Source: Nitrososphaerota archaeon
Lineage (GTDB): Archaea > Thermoproteota > Nitrososphaeria > Nitrososphaerales > Nitrosopumilaceae
Reading direction: 5' to 3'
DNA: 64,000 bases
Assembly: GCA_028867755.1 (NCBI GenBank)
Contig: JAGWFT010000001.1
Location: 228,727 to 292,726, forward strand
The notes beneath the pieces were generated by a model. The model was given only the letters and a program-made list of their open reading frames with translations, ran no database searches and had not been told where the DNA came from. Positions within the stretch are counted from its first letter, which is position 1; each line of letters starts with the position of its first letter. Below, one piece after another: positions 4,492 to 17,047 of this stretch. Both the position numbers and the translations under genes were made by a program.

Positions 4492-5952
4492 TTGCCATAT
4501 AAAGTGATTGGTGGAGAGCCAGTATCAGTTTCTTACTCGGCTGATGAAGTTTTTGCAAAGATAAAACACGATCAGATAAAATTCATAGATTTACAATTTA
4601 CAGGTCTTAGAGGAAGATTTCATCACACGACAATTTCTGCTAACCTGTTTACCCCTCAACAGATGCAAGATGGCTTGCCAAAGCTAGATGGTTCTTCAAT
4701 CGTAGGATTTGCTTCCATCCAAGACTCTGACATGATACTCAAGCCAGATCCCAATACATATGCGGTAATTCCTTGGATGACAAACTCCAAAACAGCTAGG
4801 TTGATTTGTGATGTATACTGGGGTTGGGGAAAAGGCAGGCTGGAATCCGATCCAAGAGGCATAGCACAAAAGGCTGAAAAACATCTTACAACACAGGGTT
4901 TTGATACAAGCTACTGGGGTCCAGAGGTAGAGTTCTTTGTTTTTGACAAGATCCAATGGGATGTATTGACGCCATACAAGGGCCAGTCATATTCAATCGA
5001 GTCAAAGGAAGCCCCATGGAACCAAGAGGGAAAAGGATACCCAATGGCATTGAAAAAGGGATACTATCCCAGCACTCCTGCTGATACTTTAACAGAATAT
5101 AGAAACGATTGTGTGGAATGCTTGAATGAGTATTTTGGAATCTTATGTGACAATCATCACCATGAGGTGGCAACTGCTGGACAGTGTGAGATCGATATAA
5201 GATATGATACCTTGACAAATTCCGCAGATGGCGCACAGACTTACAAGTATGTTATAAGAAATATTGCTACAAAATATGACAAGGTTGCAACCATGATGCC
5301 AAAACCAATTTCTATGGATGCAGGTTCTGGAATGCACACCAATGTAAGCTTGTGGAAGGACGGCAAGAACATGTTCTTTGACAAGGATGACAAAGAAGAG
5401 ATAAGCCAAGCTGCAAGGTACTATTGCGGAGGAATCATGAATCATGCAAGAGCGTTGTCTGCAATTGTTGCACCGACAACAAATTCTTATCACAGATTGG
5501 TTCCTGGATATGAAGCTCCTGTGTATATTGCATGGAGTGCAAGCAACAGGTCTGCAATAATTAGAATTCCGGCTCATTTCAGGGGAGAAAAATATGCAAA
5601 GATAAAGAGGTTAGAGTTCAGGGCTCCAGATCCGTCTTCAAATCCATATCTTGTATTTGCAGCAGTTCTTGCAGCAGGACTTGATGGAATTAAAAGGAAG
5701 ACCGAGCCTGGCGACCCAGTTAACGAAGATATCTATAAGATGACAAAGACGCAACGAGATGCAAAGGGGATCAAAGACCTGCCAGCAACGTTAGGAGAGG
5801 CACTTGATGAGCTTGAAAGTGACAGAAAATTCCTCAACCCAATATTTTCAAACGAGACCATTGACAAGATAATTGAGATAGAAAGAGCAGACGACCACGA
5901 GATCTCAATAAGACCTCATCCTCACGAGTTTTATCTCTATTTTGATATCTAG
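4492..5952 (+). CDS. glnA: Glutamine synthetase type I
   Basis: GPEVEFF, HHHEVATAGQCEI, MPKP…GSGMH, RLVPGYEAP, NRSA and RLEFRAPD motifs; start trimmed to TTG at 4492. Confidence 0.97.
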   Translation: MPYKVIGGEPVSVSYSADEVFAKIKHDQIKFIDLQFTGLRGRFHHTTISANLFTPQQMQDGLPKLDGSSIVGFASIQDSDMILKPDPNTYAVIPWMTNSKTARLICDVYWGWGKGRLESDPRGIAQKAEKHLTTQGFDTSYWGPEVEFFVFDKIQWDVLTPYKGQSYSIESKEAPWNQEGKGYPMALKKGYYPSTPADTLTEYRNDCVECLNEYFGILCDNHHHEVATAGQCEIDIRYDTLTNSADGAQTYKYVIRNIATKYDKVATMMPKPISMDAGSGMHTNVSLWKDGKNMFFDKDDKEEISQAARYYCGGIMNHARALSAIVAPTTNSYHRLVPGYEAPVYIAWSASNRSAIIRIPAHFRGEKYAKIKRLEFRAPDPSSNPYLVFAAVLAAGLDGIKRKTEPGDPVNEDIYKMTKTQRDAKGIKDLPATLGEALDELESDRKFLNPIFSNETIDKIIEIERADDHEISIRPHPHEFYLYFDI

Positions 5953-6227
5953 GCTCTTCCTATTGCACCGTATATCAAGAATAATGCTGCTGCCATGATA
6001 GCTAGGCCAATAGCGAGGTAAGCTTTCCTGTGGCGGTCACCAGTTCCTGCCTTGTAAAGGGAGACAGCACCTGCCAGACCTACGAAGAGAATCAATGTTC
6101 CTATTATGACTGGATCCCAAGCACTATGAGTGATAACAGGATAAAAGACTCCAGAGAGCAGCGCAAAGAAAACTGCCAGGTAAATGTATTTTGCACCAGC
6201 CAAGATTTTGCTGCTGCCTAGTTGCAT
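5949..6227 (-). CDS. Small membrane protein
   Basis: Three hydrophobic helices. Confidence 0.7.
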   Translation of the reverse strand: MQLGSSKILAGAKYIYLAVFFALLSGVFYPVITHSAWDPVIIGTLILFVGLAGAVSLYKAGTGDRHRKAYLAIGLAIMAAALFLIYGAIGRA

Positions 6228-6286
6228 AGGATTGCCTATCTAGAATAGTCAAATAAACCTTTGAGAAGAGAAAGAGTGTTTTCTTT

Positions 6287-7972
6287 TTATTCCATGCCCA
6301 TAGGTGGCATGCCCATGCCGCCCATCCCACCCATTCCTTCCATACCACCCATGCCGCCCATTCCTCCTCCTGGTGGTCCAGAAGTTTTGGTTACTGAAAT
6401 CACATCATCAATTCTTAGAATCATGCATGCTGCTTCTGTTGCAGATGAGATTATCTGGTTTTTTACAGATAATGGTTCGAAGATATCTGTTGCATGCATG
6501 CTTGCGACTTGGCCTTTCATAACATCAATGCCAGTCCACTTGTTTCCCTTCAACTGCTTTGATCGTAATGAAGCAAGAGTATCAATTGGATCCATTCCTG
6601 CGTTTTCTGCAAGTGTGATTGGAATTACCTCAAGAGAATCGGCAAACTTTTCCACTGCTAATTGTTCTCTTCCTTCAAGTGATTTTGCCCACTCGCGAAG
6701 TTTTGTTGCAGCATAGGTTTCTGGAGCACCCCCGCCTGCTACTATCATTGGGTTTTCCATTACATCTTTTACAACCATTAATGCGTCGTGTACAGATCTC
6801 TCAACTTCGTCAACAACTCTTTGAGAGCCTGCTCTTACAAGAAGAGTTACTGCCTTGGGATGCTTGCAGCCTTCAACGAATACCCATCTATCACTCTCTA
6901 CTTTTCGTTCTTCTACCAGTTCTGCAGAGCCAAGATCCTTTTCAAATAAATCATCAAGATTTGTAATCATTCTTGCGCCAGTTGCTTTTGCAAGTTTTGC
7001 CATGTCACTTTCTTTTACTCTTCTAACTGTAAGAACTCCTGCCTTTGCAAGATAATGCTGTGCCATGTCATCTATGCCCTTTTGGCAGAACAATACATTG
7101 GCACCAGATGCAACAACCTTATCAACCATGTTCTTGATCATTCTGTTTTCCTCATCAAGAAATGACTTCATCTGCTGTGGATTATTGATATTGATCTTGG
7201 CATCAAATTCTGTCTTGTCAATCTCAAGCGCGTTGTTTATGATTGCAATTTTTGCTTTTTCAATCTTCTTTGGCATTCCACTGTGAACCACTTCCTTGTC
7301 AAGTATGATTCCTTTGGTAATGCTGGAATCCTTGATAGAGCCGCCAGCCTTTTTTTCTACCTTGATATCATCAATGTCCACTCTATATCCTTCCTCGGCT
7401 TTTTCTGCAACTGCCAATACTGCCTTTACTATCATATCTGCCAAGTTTGCAGAATCTCTTCTGACAAGCTTTGTCTGCATTGAGGTCCTTGCAATTCTTT
7501 CAAGAACATCTTTGTCAGTAGGAGAAACCTTGTCTGCTATCTTTGACAAAAGATCTTTTGCCTTGTGTGCAGCCTTTCTGTAACCATCAACTATTATTGT
7601 TGGATGAACATCCTGCAAAATGAGAGACTCGGCATTTTCTAAAAGTGCACCAGCAAGTACCACTGCAGAGGTTGTTCCATCACCCACCTCATTATCGGTT
7701 GCTTTGGAGATCTCAACTAGCATTTTTGCTGCGGGGTGCTGAACGTCAATTTCCTTAAGAATGGTGGCACCATCATTTGTAATTGTAACGTCACCAAGTG
7801 AATCTACCAGCATCTTGTCCATTCCTCGTGGACCAAGGCTGGTATGAATGATTTCTGCAATCAGTTTTGCTGCAGAGATATTATTTTTCTGGGCGTCACG
7901 ACCCTTGGTCTGTGTTGCGCCGTCTTTTAATATAACAACTGGAATTCCGCCCGATGAGGCTTGAATTGACAT
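6287..7972 (-). CDS. ths: Thermosome (group II chaperonin) subunit
   Basis: [21 protein letters not shown] and GDGTTS motifs; GGM-repeat tail. Confidence 0.97.
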
Positions 7973-12788: not shown

Positions 12789-13538
12789 CTACTTCCTTAC
12801 GAACTGGATGGTTTTTACGATATCGGCTATTGTCTTGAAACTTCCGCCTTTTTCAATGAAGGTGCCAATTACTATGGCATCAGCACCTGCCTTGACAATC
12901 TCGCCAGCAGTCTTGGCGTTTCGTATCCCTCCGCCGACTATGAGAAATCCCTTGAAGAGTTTTCTAACAGCTGCAACCATCTCTGGCCTAACATTTGATT
13001 TTGCTCCAGAGCCTGCTTCGAGATATACAAATCTCATGCCCATGAATTGAGCAGATAAGGCGTACATGGCGGCCAAACTTGGCTTGTCAAACGGAATGGT
13101 TCTTGCAGAGCCAACATGCCATACTGTTGTACCTTCACCGATTATAATATAGGCTGTTGGTAGGGGCTCAAGTCCAAATCTGAGTACGTTCGGGGCACCT
13201 AGTGCCTGGGCCTGTGAGATAAAGTATGGGTTGTCAGAGTTCAAAAGCGAGCTAAACAGGATTGCATCTGCTCCGGGGACCACACCAGTAACATTTCCTG
13301 GAAAGAGTATTACTGGGATCTTGACAGATTTTTTGATATTTTTAACAGTCTCGGCCATGGTTAGCTGATCGGTCGCAGATGATCCTCCAACCAATATGAC
13401 TGATGCACCGTTCTTCTCTGCTTCCTTGGCAAGTTTTGATGCCGGTATGTTTCCATCATTTTCAGAGTCAATTAATACGAAAAGTAAGGCCCCCCTCTTC
13501 TTCTTGGTGGCATTCAGATAGCTTTCTACGCTTTGCAT
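12789..13538 (-). CDS. Geranylgeranylglyceryl phosphate synthase
   Basis: LIDSEN, ILVGGS, ILFPG, YLEAGSGA and VGGGIR motifs of the GGGP/PcrB family. Confidence 0.93.
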   Translation of the reverse strand: MQSVESYLNATKKKRGALLFVLIDSENDGNIPASKLAKEAEKNGASVILVGGSSATDQLTMAETVKNIKKSVKIPVILFPGNVTGVVPGADAILFSSLLNSDNPYFISQAQALGAPNVLRFGLEPLPTAYIIIGEGTTVWHVGSARTIPFDKPSLAAMYALSAQFMGMRFVYLEAGSGAKSNVRPEMVAAVRKLFKGFLIVGGGIRNAKTAGEIVKAGADAIVIGTFIEKGGSFKTIADIVKTIQFVRK

Positions 13539-13572
13539 ATGACTGGTTAATAGCTATTCATTAAAAGTTTAA

Positions 13573-13965
13573 TTGAATAAGGTTATACAGATTTGTATAG
13601 CTTTGAGTACATCCCCAGAAGAAAATTTGAATAACATAATAAGGCAAATTATAGAAAAATCATTATTTACGGAGCGTCAAATTGAAATTATTTTAAAAAG
13701 ACGGAGCCTATCAGAACATCAGTTTAGCATAACTAAGGGGGCTTTTTACAGGCAGGTCAGACAGTCCCAGGATAAGTTTGAGGCCTTGTGTTATTCCTGG
13801 ATATTGCTCAGGGCGTTAGGGGTCCTTCGTGAGGAGGATATGGATGTGATAAGTCGTCTCTCAGAACAGGTTTCTGTGATAAAAAACAGTGATGTTTTCC
13901 CTGAACGTGAGGAACAAGTCATGTCTGTGATAAAGGAGCTACTAAAACGCATGTGTAAGATGTGA
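13573..13965 (+). CDS. Hypothetical protein with possible helix-turn-helix
   Basis: FTERQIEII…ITKGAFYRQVRQ resembles a LuxR/sigma-region-4/Bat-type HTH. Confidence 0.65.
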   Translation: MNKVIQICIALSTSPEENLNNIIRQIIEKSLFTERQIEIILKRRSLSEHQFSITKGAFYRQVRQSQDKFEALCYSWILLRALGVLREEDMDVISRLSEQVSVIKNSDVFPEREEQVMSVIKELLKRMCKM

Positions 13966-14084
13966 TTTTGACCTGTGAGAGTGTTTTTGGCATGAATAAT
14001 TCGTGATAAACATGTTGTGATTGATGTGCATTGTGTGAAATTATTTTATTCAAATATGATAAATCACGTTGGTTATGATGTGTA

Positions 14085-14645
14085 GTGATGTTAGTAGACA
14101 TAGATGTAGGAATGATTTTGACCATAATTGCTTCATTTGTAATTGGTCTTGCATGTGTAGTAGCATACAACAAGATCAGGCCACGCCTAGGTTCACAAAG
14201 CAGCGATCTAAAAATTTTGGTAGAACGGCTACAATATTATGAAAATCTGTTAATAGACATGAAAATTAGGCTAGATTCATTTGAACTAGTCAAGGAACCT
14301 GAAGAACTTCCTCAGGCGCAAATTCCAAAGCCAAAGGAGCAGAAACATGAACCAGTTGTGGCTGTAGAGATAAAAGAAGAGAAGCCCAAAGAAAGGACAC
14401 ATAACATGAACTTTGGTAGTGCAACAGAGTATGTACTGCGATTAATCACAGAAAAGCCTACGACATCACGTGACATTCAGGTCACAATAGGAAGAACACG
14501 AGAACATACATCACGCATGATGAAAAAGCTTTTTGAGGAAGGCTTGGTCGAAAGGGATATGCAAACAAAGCCCTTTACCTACAAGATAACCGAGAAAGGC
14601 CTTACTAGAATAGGGACATTAAAGGAACCACCAACAATACAATAG
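14085..14645 (+). CDS. Membrane-anchored coiled-coil protein with C-terminal winged helix (MarR/ArsR-like)
   Basis: N-terminal TM segment (MILTIIASFVIGLACVVAY), coiled coil, Pro/Glu/Lys linker, then TTSRDIQ…TREHTSRMMKKLFEEGLVER…YKITEKG. Confidence 0.8.
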   Translation: MMLVDIDVGMILTIIASFVIGLACVVAYNKIRPRLGSQSSDLKILVERLQYYENLLIDMKIRLDSFELVKEPEELPQAQIPKPKEQKHEPVVAVEIKEEKPKERTHNMNFGSATEYVLRLITEKPTTSRDIQVTIGRTREHTSRMMKKLFEEGLVERDMQTKPFTYKITEKGLTRIGTLKEPPTIQ

Positions 14646-14817
14646 GTTGGCTTTTGATCTTGGTTTTGACTTAAGTTTGAGGTTTTGGTTTTGAAGGTTT
14701 TTTGGGCTGATGGAAGGTTTTAGGATTGTTTTTAGTCAAAAATGATGAAAAATCAACATAAATTATTAATCTTATTTTATTATAAAATCTTAAATTAAGG
14801 AATTTATAATATACAGC

Positions 14818-14973
14818 ATGTCAGATATGGAGCAGCTCGTAAAGATAACATCCGCGGGCACGATCTCGATCCCTAAGGATTTTAGGAGATATCTTGAACT
14901 CCAGAAGGGAGATTATATCAAAATATCAGTCGAGGGGGATCGTCTAGTTGTTAAAAAGGCAACAATCTCTTAA
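14818..14973 (+). CDS. AbrB/MazE/SpoVT-family DNA-binding protein (51 aa, not in ORF track)
   Basis: Manual translation MSDMEQLVKITSAGTISIPKDFRRYLELQKGDYIKISVEGDRLVVKKATIS* fits the AbrB pattern. Confidence 0.88.
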   Translation: MSDMEQLVKITSAGTISIPKDFRRYLELQKGDYIKISVEGDRLVVKKATIS

Positions 14974-15365
14974 GTCGTATTTTGTTCTCTTTGGGCTAGT
15001 TTGAGCACTTGATAGTCCCATTCCTTCCCTTTTCTCTCTCTGCCCATCCTTCCTTTAAGAGCAAACCTTGAGAGATATGTGGAGATCACGCTTAGTTTGA
15101 TTGGCTCTTCGTACTCGTCCTCATATTTTTCAAGAATCATAGAAGAGGTAAACTTACCCATTGGGAAGTGCTTGTCCACAATATTCCAGATTTTGGCCCC
15201 AATCGTATCAAGTTGTGCTGATTCCTCAGGTTCCTCTATGTTCATCAAATCCATTAATTCGAATATCTTTAGCATCTTTTCACGGGTAACATTACCCTCT
15301 AGGCTAAGGTTGTACTTGGCGCCTTCTGCGTCCTCTAGGTCTATTCGTATTCGTTTTCGAGCCAT
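14970..15365 (-). CDS. Conserved hypothetical protein with C-terminal winged-helix-like domain
   Basis: FTSSMILEKYE…IKLSVISTYLSRFALKGRMGRERKGKEWDY looks like a recognition helix plus wing. Confidence 0.75.
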   Translation of the reverse strand: MARKRIRIDLEDAEGAKYNLSLEGNVTREKMLKIFELMDLMNIEEPEESAQLDTIGAKIWNIVDKHFPMGKFTSSMILEKYEDEYEEPIKLSVISTYLSRFALKGRMGRERKGKEWDYQVLKLAQREQNTT

Positions 15366-15522
15366 CGTGATCGATCAGGTTAACACATCTACACTTGAAC
15401 AGATCATAGAAGAATTGTTAACAAGTAAGTTTGTTAACATTCACTGCGTAATCCACGCCTAGCCATTTTTCCCATCTTAACAGGCTTCCCTAAGCTTTTA
15501 TCCAGGGGCAGGCCAAAACTAT

Positions 15523-15546
15523 GCCTAGAGTGGAAATAAAGGGGTC
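15523..15546 (+). repeat. ORB box 1
   Basis: 24-nt sequence identical to ORB box 2; AGTGGAAA core and G-string. Confidence 0.9.
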
Positions 15547-15584
15547 CATTTAGGCATATTAACAATGTTAAGGACCATCTTCAC

Positions 15585-15608
15585 GCCTAGAGTGGAAATA
15601 AAGGGGTC
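15585..15608 (+). repeat. ORB box 2
   Basis: Exact direct repeat of ORB box 1. Confidence 0.9.
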
Positions 15609-15680
15609 ATTTTGGGCTCCTTTTAGATTCACCTTAACACCAAGTTCACTAACTGTTAATTTGGTTCCAGAAATACCCAC

Positions 15681-15702
15681 ACCCCTTTTCTTCCACTCTA
15701 GC
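15681..15702 (-). repeat. ORB box 3 (inverted)
   Basis: Reverse complement GCTAGAGTGGAAGAAAAGGGGT. Confidence 0.87.
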
Positions 15703-15838
15703 TTTATTAAAAAATATTTTTTTAAGAAAATAAAAATAATTAATGATATACTAAATTTGAATTAGTTATTCTATTCTAATCTAATTAGTATGGTAGAGTC
15801 CATATGTGGATAGAGAAGAAACAATGGTGTGTGGGTTG

Positions 15839-17047
15839 ATGACAAGAGATCCTATTGATAAATTACTTGATGATGCAGCAAGCGGTAAATCATTATTCAA
15901 AAACAGAGAGGTGTTGCATTTTACGTTCATACCAAACATGGTATTGCATAGAGATGATGAACAGAAAAAAGTTACCCAATCACTTATTCCACTGCTGAAA
16001 AAGGCCAGGCCATCAAACCTATTGATATATGGCAAACCAGGTACGGGTAAGACATTAGTTGTAAAAAAAGTACTAGATAAGATTCAAGAGCGAGTTAAGG
16101 ACGGCTCATTTCCAATACAACTGCTGTACGCAAATGCAAAGGAAGAGACCACATTATACGGACTTTTGGTAAAATTTGGCCGCCAGTTGGGACTTGCATC
16201 ACAAAAGGAGCTGCCAACAACTGGACTATCAATCAGTGAAGTCTTCAATAGGCTAATAGCAGTAATTGAAAAGAACGCCCTCAATACTGTCTTTGTAGTA
16301 GACGAGATTGATTATCTGGCAGAACTAGTATCAAAGACAGGAAAGGATGTTTTCTATTCATTAACACGAGCAAATGAGAGACTGAAAAAAGGCTCACTTA
16401 CTTTGATTGGCATATCAAACGACCTAACGTTCAAAGAAAGACTGGACCCCAGGGTTCTAAGCAGCCTAAGTGAGGAAGAGATTGTCTTTACCAACTATAC
16501 AGTTAACCAGATCAAGGAAATATTGATGGATAGGATCAAGGAAGCATTTGTTCCACACATAGTGGATCCAGCAGCCCTAAACCTATGTGCTGCAATGTCA
16601 GGCCAAGAACATGGCGATGCCAGGCGGGCAATAGACCTACTTCGTGTAGCAGGCGAGATAGCAGAACGAGAGCAGTCTGATATTGTAAAAGAAGACCAAA
16701 TTCGCAAGGCCTCTTTGAAGATGGAAGAAGATAAGGAAACAACAGCACTTAACTCATACCCCCTTCATGAAAAATTACTCATACTTGCAGTAATGAAGGC
16801 AAACGGCACCACGACAGGTGAGATATATCACTCCTACAAGAATCTCTGCAAGATCACCAGACAGAAAGAACTCACACAGCGTAGAGTCACTCAAATGCTA
16901 AGCGAGATAGAAATGACAGGATTAATCTCAGGAAAGATAGTCCATCAAGGGATGCATGGGAGAACAAAAAAATTTGCCCTGACACTAAATCCAAATACAA
17001 TAAAAAAAGCATTCAAAGAAGACTTGGCATTAGAAGATCTACTGTAA
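15839..17047 (+). CDS. cdc6: Orc1/Cdc6 replication initiator
   Basis: Walker A GKPGTGKT, Walker B VVDEID, HGDARRAIDLLR, C-terminal winged helix; start trimmed to ATG 15839. Confidence 0.97.
   Translation: MTRDPIDKLLDDAASGKSLFKNREVLHFTFIPNMVLHRDDEQKKVTQSLIPLLKKARPSNLLIYGKPGTGKTLVVKKVLDKIQERVKDGSFPIQLLYANAKEETTLYGLLVKFGRQLGLASQKELPTTGLSISEVFNRLIAVIEKNALNTVFVVDEIDYLAELVSKTGKDVFYSLTRANERLKKGSLTLIGISNDLTFKERLDPRVLSSLSEEEIVFTNYTVNQIKEILMDRIKEAFVPHIVDPAALNLCAAMSGQEHGDARRAIDLLRVAGEIAEREQSDIVKEDQIRKASLKMEEDKETTALNSYPLHEKLLILAVMKANGTTTGEIYHSYKNLCKITRQKELTQRRVTQMLSEIEMTGLISGKIVHQGMHGRTKKFALTLNPNTIKKAFKEDLALEDLL

Follow-up and report, generated by a model that had tools for sequence, protein, structure and literature searches.

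Among described archaeal systems for chromosome handling and origin firing, SegAB of Sulfolobus needs the ParA-type ATPase SegA together with SegB, and the WhiP/Cdt1-like initiators, which contain tandem winged-helix domains, are required for firing of their cognate origin. Two further groups of regulators bear on the proteins treated here: BlaI/MecI/CopY, in which a helical dimerisation domain follows an N-terminal winged helix and which work with a sensor protease, and the bacterial bitopic regulators ToxR and CadC, which carry periplasmic sensor domains. Ammonia-oxidising archaea and Bathyarchaeia rank among Earth's most abundant archaea and have one Orc1/Cdc6 origin; to our knowledge, the control of replication initiation and chromosome handling in these groups is almost unstudied, and we know of no segregation system in them. 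The subject of this analysis is a run of four small genes that flank this origin, encoding ORF130, ORF186, a 51-aa AbrB protein and ORF131, in a 64,000-nucleotide window (the whole stretch of DNA analysed) from contig JAGWFT010000001.1 of assembly GCA_028867755.1. The organism is a Nitrosotalea, an ammonia-oxidising archaeon, and archaeal amoA is present in its genome.

In Sulfolobus oriC1, a motif distinct from the origin recognition boxes (ORBs) lies between them, is bound by a non-initiator protein and is essential (Dhanaraju et al. 2025, PMC12141716). The binding protein, UBP, is a β-rich saddle protein that contacts DNA through β-hairpins; it is abundant, binds at hundreds of places in the genome, and its gene is not beside the origin (PMC12141716). 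In haloarchaea, the conserved oapABC (arvABC) cluster lies divergent from an origin-linked orc1 across oriC (PMC7002104, PMC10927574). The archaeal membrane-bound regulator ArnR (ArnR/ArnR1 of Sulfolobus acidocaldarius) consists of an N-terminal helix-turn-helix (HTH), HAMP and sensor domains, and a C-terminal membrane helix (PMC10117864).

A conserved gene block beside the replication origin

ORF130, ORF186 and ORF131 emerge from sequence comparison as strong candidates for origin control. We read the locus, with confidence somewhat short of even, as the version, in Nitrosotalea, of an ancient and conserved DNA-binding module that flanks the origin and has two parts and one later addition. 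Within the locus, ORF131, and not the membrane protein ORF186, has the tightest link to the origin, and this link is to the origin itself, not merely to the cdc6 gene. Over the 900 bp upstream of ORF131, the density of strict ORBs is 1.11 per kb, ~70 times that of the remainder of these loci (0.016 per kb). The nearest ORB lies a median 177.5 bp from the ORF131 start (interquartile range 164–214, 70 loci), and its orientation relative to ORF131 is identical in 33 of 36 cases; ORB1 of the window, at ~160 bp, belongs to a cluster (15523–15701) that is the only one in the genome. Where cdc6 is not nearby, full ORBs are still found upstream of ORF131 in four of nine loci, namely L056 (Infirmifilum), L065, L066 and L072; three of these have two or three ORBs in an origin-like arrangement, and L072 has one.

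The features of the locus are as follows (positions within the window).

13573–13965, plus strand: ORF130, all-α protein of an unnamed family (AlphaFold2 model; no Pfam/NCBIfam match)
13829–14088, plus strand: GTGA/TGTGAT array, spanning the ORF130 3' end and the ORF186 promoter
14085–14645, plus strand: ORF186, membrane helix and winged helix (hydropathy; Pfam HTH_27)
14646–14740, plus strand: T-rich spacer with five GGTTTT, downstream of ORF186; species-specific
14818–14973, plus strand: 51-aa AbrB/SpoVT-domain protein (PF04014, TIGR01439); its stop overlaps the ORF131 stop
14970–15365, minus strand: ORF131, β-hairpin and helix, then winged helix (AlphaFold2 model); divergent from cdc6 across the origin
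15366–15805, no strand: oriC intergenic region, with 10 TTAACA/TGTTAA sites, three ORBs and an A/T-rich tract
15523–15555: ORB1, within the oriC region
15585–15617: ORB2, within the oriC region
15681–15701: ORB3, inverted
15806–17047, plus strand: orc1/cdc6 initiator gene (Pfam Cdc6_lid, Cdc6_C, AAA)
12789–13538, minus strand: GGGPS (PcrB family; Pfam PcrB E 7e-52), bounds the block on its left and is transcribed away from ORF130

The full gene order is PolD large subunit (−), GGGPS (−), ORF130 (+), ORF186 (+), AbrB gene (+), ORF131 (−), a 440-bp gap, cdc6 (+) and PolD small subunit (−). All four small genes listed in the initial annotation are present as open reading frames (ORFs) at the coordinates it gave. 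That annotation took all four products for putative DNA-binding proteins, a description that fits ORF186, the AbrB protein and ORF131, for which a DNA-binding fold was found, and does not extend to ORF130.

With each protein used as query, ORF130, ORF186 and ORF131 adjoin cdc6 in the same order and orientation in 13–15 of the 17 families of the order, and the families that lack the trio beside cdc6 are represented by incomplete genomes. (Three unpublished genomes, G010, G011 and G017, are counted in the family tallies and in the ORF131 copy number; none of the claims depends solely on them.) The block arrangement is kept in 10 Nitrosopumilaceae genera. Sampling of the class outside this order covered 20 genomes; in every one, a gap of 200–640 bp separates ORF131 from an adjoining cdc6, and ORF130 and ORF186 are jointly present or jointly absent at all 20 loci; both are absent from the locus in families f22, f23 and f25. 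In other classes, including Bathyarchaeia, ORF131 adjoins cdc6 in 11 of 20 loci, often with ORF186 and/or ORF130 still alongside, and one of these two occurs without the other in four loci, within the stretch fetched. The neighbour of ORF130 is GGGPS in most Nitrososphaeria loci and in some Bathyarchaeia loci. Synteny with cdc6, which the initial annotation had named as one check, reaches far beyond Nitrososphaerota for ORF130, ORF186 and ORF131 and is confined to Nitrosopumilaceae for the AbrB gene. The literature yielded no description of these genes in Thaumarchaeota.

The lack of a ParA ATPase at the locus was correctly noted at the outset: 12789–15805 contains no P-loop ORF, and the sole AAA_31 match in the genome is partial and lies ~917 kb from the locus. 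At one locus of another class (L064, G267:C1:861700-872200, positions 5900–6736, from a genome of 57% GC), an ORF131–ORF130 pair adjoins a gene whose product starts with a ParA/MinD-like P-loop (VSNQKGGVGKTT), and a ParB-like ORF lies 2.5 kb off; it is the sole locus seen with ParA/ParB-like neighbours. In one Nitrosopumilaceae genus (L083, G168:C1:83300-89300), ORF131 and cdc6 are in place, and ORF186, ORF130 and AbrB were undetected in the 2.9 kb beyond ORF131.

Within the origin, the A/T-rich tract (~15700–15790) stands beside cdc6, outside the facing ORBs (ORB1/2 versus ORB3) and not between them; what occupies the stretch from ORB2 to ORB3 is a set of TTAACA and TGTTAA sites. A fourth element, resembling an ORB in degenerate form, is found at 15811–15836, inside the annotated 5' end of cdc6; its complementarity to the ORB3 arm (15675–15700) is 77%. 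Because Cdc6 alignments of relatives start 10–17 residues after the annotated start, the true start of cdc6 may be ATG 15824 or 15842, in which case this element would fall in the leader.

ORF131

The second winged-helix-like protein of the initial annotation, ORF131, is borne out as such by its AlphaFold2 model, in which a winged helix at residues 55–120 (pLDDT 85–91) follows a β-β-α N-terminus of low confidence. The predicted recognition helix (residues 91–103) holds V93 in its first turn. The fold is generic: the model superposes on the Fur DNA-binding domain with Z 11.1 and rmsd 1.9 over 70 residues, and its matches include the centromere binders AspA and TubR, which are not set apart from many repressors. 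By sequence, Penicillinase_R is matched by 18 of 19 ORF131 relatives (best E 1.1e-7); the window's own protein reaches 13.5 bits, below the cut-off of 22.6, and scores 15.1 against CopY TIGR02698, for which the cut-off is 122. Profile searches of PDB chain sequences with ORF131 and ORF130 returned weak winged-helix or designed-helix matches only. Prediction of a complex of Cdc6 and ORF131 scored 0.00 against a mark of 0.32, a result that gives no verdict and counts as evidence neither way.

Of 111 high-quality Nitrososphaeria genomes, 110 have a single copy of ORF131, and a profile of 36 sequences detects relatives in 138 of 201 Thermoproteota genomes. Exact look-ups placed relatives in Bathyarchaeia, Methanosuratincola, Caldarchaeum and Infirmifilum, in every instance under records named 'hypothetical protein'. 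Two matches contain one in-frame stop each, TAG and TAA (G165:C4:22007-22387 and G050:C1:922458-922832, respectively); these may be sequencing errors or broken copies, and since a full-length ORF131 reading frame is found in G050, the stop there is suggested to lie just past the gene end. A relative with a ~20-residue linker insertion and a long C-terminal tail occurs in a 2.8-Mb genome of family f15 (L016, G036:C1:1480400-1485800, at 2246–2815).

ORF186 and ORF130

The product of the gene at 14085 was described in the initial annotation as a transmembrane segment, a linker and a winged helix, and each of these elements is evident. A single hydrophobic helix spans residues 8–26 (mean Kyte-Doolittle value 2.68, the best of any other stretch being 0.2); acidic residues precede it and K/R follow. 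This placement of K/R on the C-terminal side indicates that the remainder of the protein is cytoplasmic. Between the membrane helix and the winged helix lie a helix that may form a coiled coil, judging from its sequence, and a P/E/K-rich linker. Residues 117–172 match Pfam HTH_27 with 24.6 bits against a cut-off of 22.2, and TrmB is matched by 16 of 19 relatives (best E 2.5e-9); by these profile matches, above the curated cut-off, the C-terminal domain is a winged helix of the TrmB/MarR type. Its SREHT.R...KPF.Y motif is invariant across families, as is the recognition helix. The membrane helix is kept in nearly all Nitrososphaeria relatives and in the sampled full-length relatives of Bathyarchaeia type; relatives outside Nitrososphaeria and Bathyarchaeia are without it. 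ORF186 thus unites a DNA-binding domain and a transmembrane helix in one chain, as membrane-bound one-component regulators do. Domain scans detected no sensor domain in it: ~7 residues precede the helix, and the coiled-coil-like stretch and linker follow it.

ORF130 probably starts at TTG 13603 (120 aa) and not at TTG 13573, to judge from alignment with its relatives in other families, which begin at the position matching TTG 13603, and from its Atlas record, which begins at residue 11. With the later start, the divergent promoters of GGGPS and ORF130 have ~64 bp available in place of 34. The AlphaFold2 model has six helices (pLDDT 77). The label 'HTH-like' given to this protein in the initial annotation was not confirmed: no match was obtained in Pfam or NCBIfam, and fold searches (Foldseek against PDB, VIA-wide and Atlas) gave nothing informative and recovered its own family alone (TM 0.73), with no significant fold match. 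Residues 29–87 align with EsrB (7vim) at Z 5.9, a weak match that is one among many tied rows, and an Atlas feature match (score 0.81, itself a weak lead) points to a cluster with Sigma70_r4 on 14% of its members. A sigma70-r4/LuxR-type HTH at residues 29–87 is therefore a weak lead.

Repeated motifs

The initial annotation described three separate motif clusters (GTGA, GGTTTT and GTTAAC) interleaved with the genes. All three are real and well in excess of chance, and each is the densest of its own motif in the whole 1.64-Mb genome; the GGTTTT cluster differs in not being conserved. GTGA occurs in 12 forward copies in 13829–14088 (0.74 expected; 5.1 ± 1.8 in local shuffles), GGTTTT in five copies in 55 bp, and TTAACA/TGTTAA in 10 copies at 15380–15654. 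In other Nitrosotalea species, GGTTTT is present in 0–1 copies and T-runs alone are held in common; absence of the cluster from sister species led to its rejection as a conserved binding array, and the region is probably a T-rich terminator spacer.

The GTGA array is kept in six Nitrosotalea species, with a conserved core of TGTGAT/ATCACA. It contains an inverted pair, CGTGATAAA (14002) and a TTTATCACG-type element (14058–14068), around a TATA-like box at 14037–14054. In Nitrosotalea the array extends into the 3' end of ORF130, partly via repeated Ser-Val-Ile codons; outside this genus, its conserved part consists of a few sites on the ORF186 promoter. Across 39 loci from several classes, the density of TGTGAT/ATCACA is 9.07 per kb over the 250 bp that precede ORF186 and 0.94 elsewhere (~10-fold), with sites at −100 to +50 and a peak in the profile between −50 and 0 of ORF186. 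A small secondary rise 800–1000 bp upstream of ORF186 falls near the GGGPS/ORF130 promoters.

The TTAACA sites lie over the ORF131 promoter as well as between the ORBs. In six Nitrosotalea species they keep their positions, interleaved with the ORBs between variable stretches, and TTAACA/TGTTAA repeats recur at origins in several further orders, even in families without ORF130 and ORF186. In many other lineages, a TGTGAA hexamer is repeated at equivalent places, and both variants hold the same positions relative to ORB1. The variant appears to track residue 93 of ORF131: loci with Thr-93 (n = 33) have a mean of 3.27 TGTGAA and 0.94 TGTTAA, and those without it (n = 17) a mean of 0.88 TGTGAA and 5.82 TGTTAA. 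This covariation is reported as a lead and not a result because the tree-based paired test was without power. A GATCGATC palindrome at 15368–15377, right at the ORF131 start codon, is kept in six of six Nitrosotalea species aligned.

The AbrB protein

The 51-aa protein was called AbrB in the initial annotation, and the call holds: it scores 40 bits against PF04014 (cut-off 24.7) and 40.1 against TIGR01439 (cut-off 28.3), and by these profile scores it is a bare AbrB/SpoVT domain. The gene is present in Nitrosotalea and in eight of 10 other Nitrosopumilaceae genera sampled; beside the origin, it was not found in families other than Nitrosopumilaceae among the loci examined. A role as a type II antitoxin of the VapB/MazE type was rejected because the protein has no toxin partner: no toxin gene (PIN, MazF or similar) is adjacent, and among ORFs of at least 40 aa no other fits. 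The gene lies between those for ORF186 and ORF131, an arrangement repeated in eight further genera.

Proposed mechanism and alternative explanations

In the module as we envisage it, ORF131 most likely binds the TGT(T/G)AA repeats over its own promoter and between the ORBs; bound there, it would control its own expression and modulate Orc1/Cdc6 action, as an origin accessory factor. ORF130 and ORF186 are inherited as a pair, and ORF186 would be held at the membrane by its N-terminal helix, with its winged helix in the cytoplasm. The most likely target of ORF186, alone or with ORF130, is the TGTGAT array of its own promoter, 1.4–1.7 kb from the ORBs, by which it would regulate itself; because it is membrane-anchored, bound ORF186 would hold origin-proximal DNA at the membrane. 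The AbrB gene would be an extra small regulator gained in Nitrosopumilaceae. Both the assignment of proteins to motifs and any effect on replication, licensing or segregation are matters that we infer. In its most far-reaching form, which is unlikely, the proposal makes ORF131 an unrecognised origin accessory factor of Nitrososphaeria, Bathyarchaeia and other Thermoproteota that reads a TGT(G/T)AA code interspersed with the ORBs, with ORF186 and ORF130 tying the origin to the membrane independently of a ParA-type ATPase.

Several observations weigh against the module. No DNA-binding fold was demonstrated for ORF130. The AbrB gene is an addition at the level of one family, the membrane helix is missing from ORF186 relatives in L054 (Methanosuratincola), L067, L068 and L072, and ORF131 has neither cdc6 nor a strict ORB alongside in five loci of other classes. 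The match between residue 93 and the repeat variant yields three independent pairs on supported branches of the Cdc6 tree (median p 1; sign test not significant); L050 and L060 are discordant, and there are few changes, some of them clustered. Plain autoregulation fully explains why the TGTGAT sites are centred on the promoter of ORF186. That a membrane-bound winged-helix protein tethers or licenses oriC, as the initial annotation suggested, is still a hypothesis: the conserved TGTGAT sites are on that protein's own promoter, and the annotation itself counted binding confined to the genes' own promoters as a refutation. Self-regulation is a simpler reading than origin tethering or licensing.

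The locus as a whole may contain ordinary local transcription regulators, acting on themselves and perhaps on neighbours such as cdc6, GGGPS or polD, whose position at the origin is historical and whose function is unrelated to replication; they would have stayed in place because the block is ancient and seldom disrupted. Such an explanation is plausible, though on present evidence doubtful. Autoregulators would be expected to have TGTGAT on the ORF186 promoter and TTAACA over the ORF131 promoter, as is found, and conservation of the block extends to the genes for GGGPS and PolD. In haloarchaea, oapABC is just as conserved and likewise divergent from orc1, yet OapA/ArvA is a vesicle-forming GTPase without an assigned replication role (PMC10927574, PMC7002104); position misled in that case, and thus position alone gives no function. 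Local regulation does not account, however, for the ORBs that stay beside ORF131 where cdc6 has moved off, for an ORB distance and orientation that are fixed relative to ORF131 across classes, or for repeats that lie between the ORBs as well as on promoters, and the trio survives where GGGPS and PolD have been lost.

Two more specific functions can be considered for ORF186. It is improbable that the TGTGAT array is centromere-like and that ORF186 and ORF130 move or hold sister origins apart in a ParA-independent segregation system. The array is unique in the genome and close to the ORBs, a membrane helix and winged helix are kept together in two classes, the locus has no ParA gene (the partial AAA_31 match being elsewhere), and AspA and TubR are among the generic fold matches of ORF131, albeit indistinct from many repressors. 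Yet no motor or partner was identified, the conserved array shrinks to a few promoter sites outside Nitrosotalea, f22, f23 and f25 are without ORF130 and ORF186 at the locus, and ORF186 relatives without the membrane helix exist. GGGPS catalyses the first committed step of archaeal lipid synthesis, and ORF186 could sense the state of the membrane and regulate lipid synthesis via this divergent gene, the usual divergent neighbour of ORF130/ORF186; the minor TGTGAT rise near the GGGPS/ORF130 promoters fits such a circuit. A lipid sensor is nonetheless very improbable, as the pair persists without adjoining GGGPS in f21 and several loci of other classes, ORF186 has no sensor domain beyond its single helix, and the linkage of ORF131 to the ORBs would be left unexplained.

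Comparison with known systems

The origin-flanking module resembles SegAB in supplying candidate DNA-binding components for archaeal chromosome handling; it differs in that no ParA-type ATPase is encoded at this locus and the proteins are unrelated in fold class. Compared, by description, with the tandem winged-helix domains of WhiP/Cdt1, the ORF131 model has a single winged helix. BlaI/MecI/CopY (Penicillinase_R) is the nearest sequence family to this winged helix (MecI Z 8.4), but ORF131 has its winged helix at the C-terminus, behind a β-hairpin domain, and the protein falls outside the family by its cut-offs. ORF186 shares with ArnR, ToxR and CadC the anchoring of a DNA-binding protein by a transmembrane helix, and with each of them membrane anchorage means that bound DNA must lie at the membrane. 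Relative to ArnR, the order in ORF186 is reversed: the membrane helix comes first, with ~7 residues outside and no sensor domain.

The haloarchaeal oapABC cluster is similar in arrangement, being a conserved small gene cluster divergent from orc1 across oriC, as here. The Oap proteins are different: a small GTPase, a DUF2073 protein and a DUF2072 zinc-ribbon protein, and Pfam searches detected none of these domains in the four proteins or their relatives. If the trio proved to be mere autoregulators, it would be the second case after oapABC in which conservation next to an origin is misleading. The proteins, sites and predicted specificity residues form a directly testable set, with ORF131 a single-copy, phylum-wide winged-helix gene at fixed distance and orientation from the first ORB.

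UBP and the ucm motif of Sulfolobus (oriC1-3) provide the nearest functional parallel to a non-ORB origin motif that is recognised by a protein of its own. ORF131 differs from UBP in its modelled winged-helix fold, in being encoded at the edge of the origin and in having candidate sites clustered there only, and the two are not homologous. What they would have in common is that, at an Orc1-dependent origin, a small protein other than the initiator binds a short non-ORB motif situated between the ORBs; such binding is shown for UBP and proposed here for ORF131.

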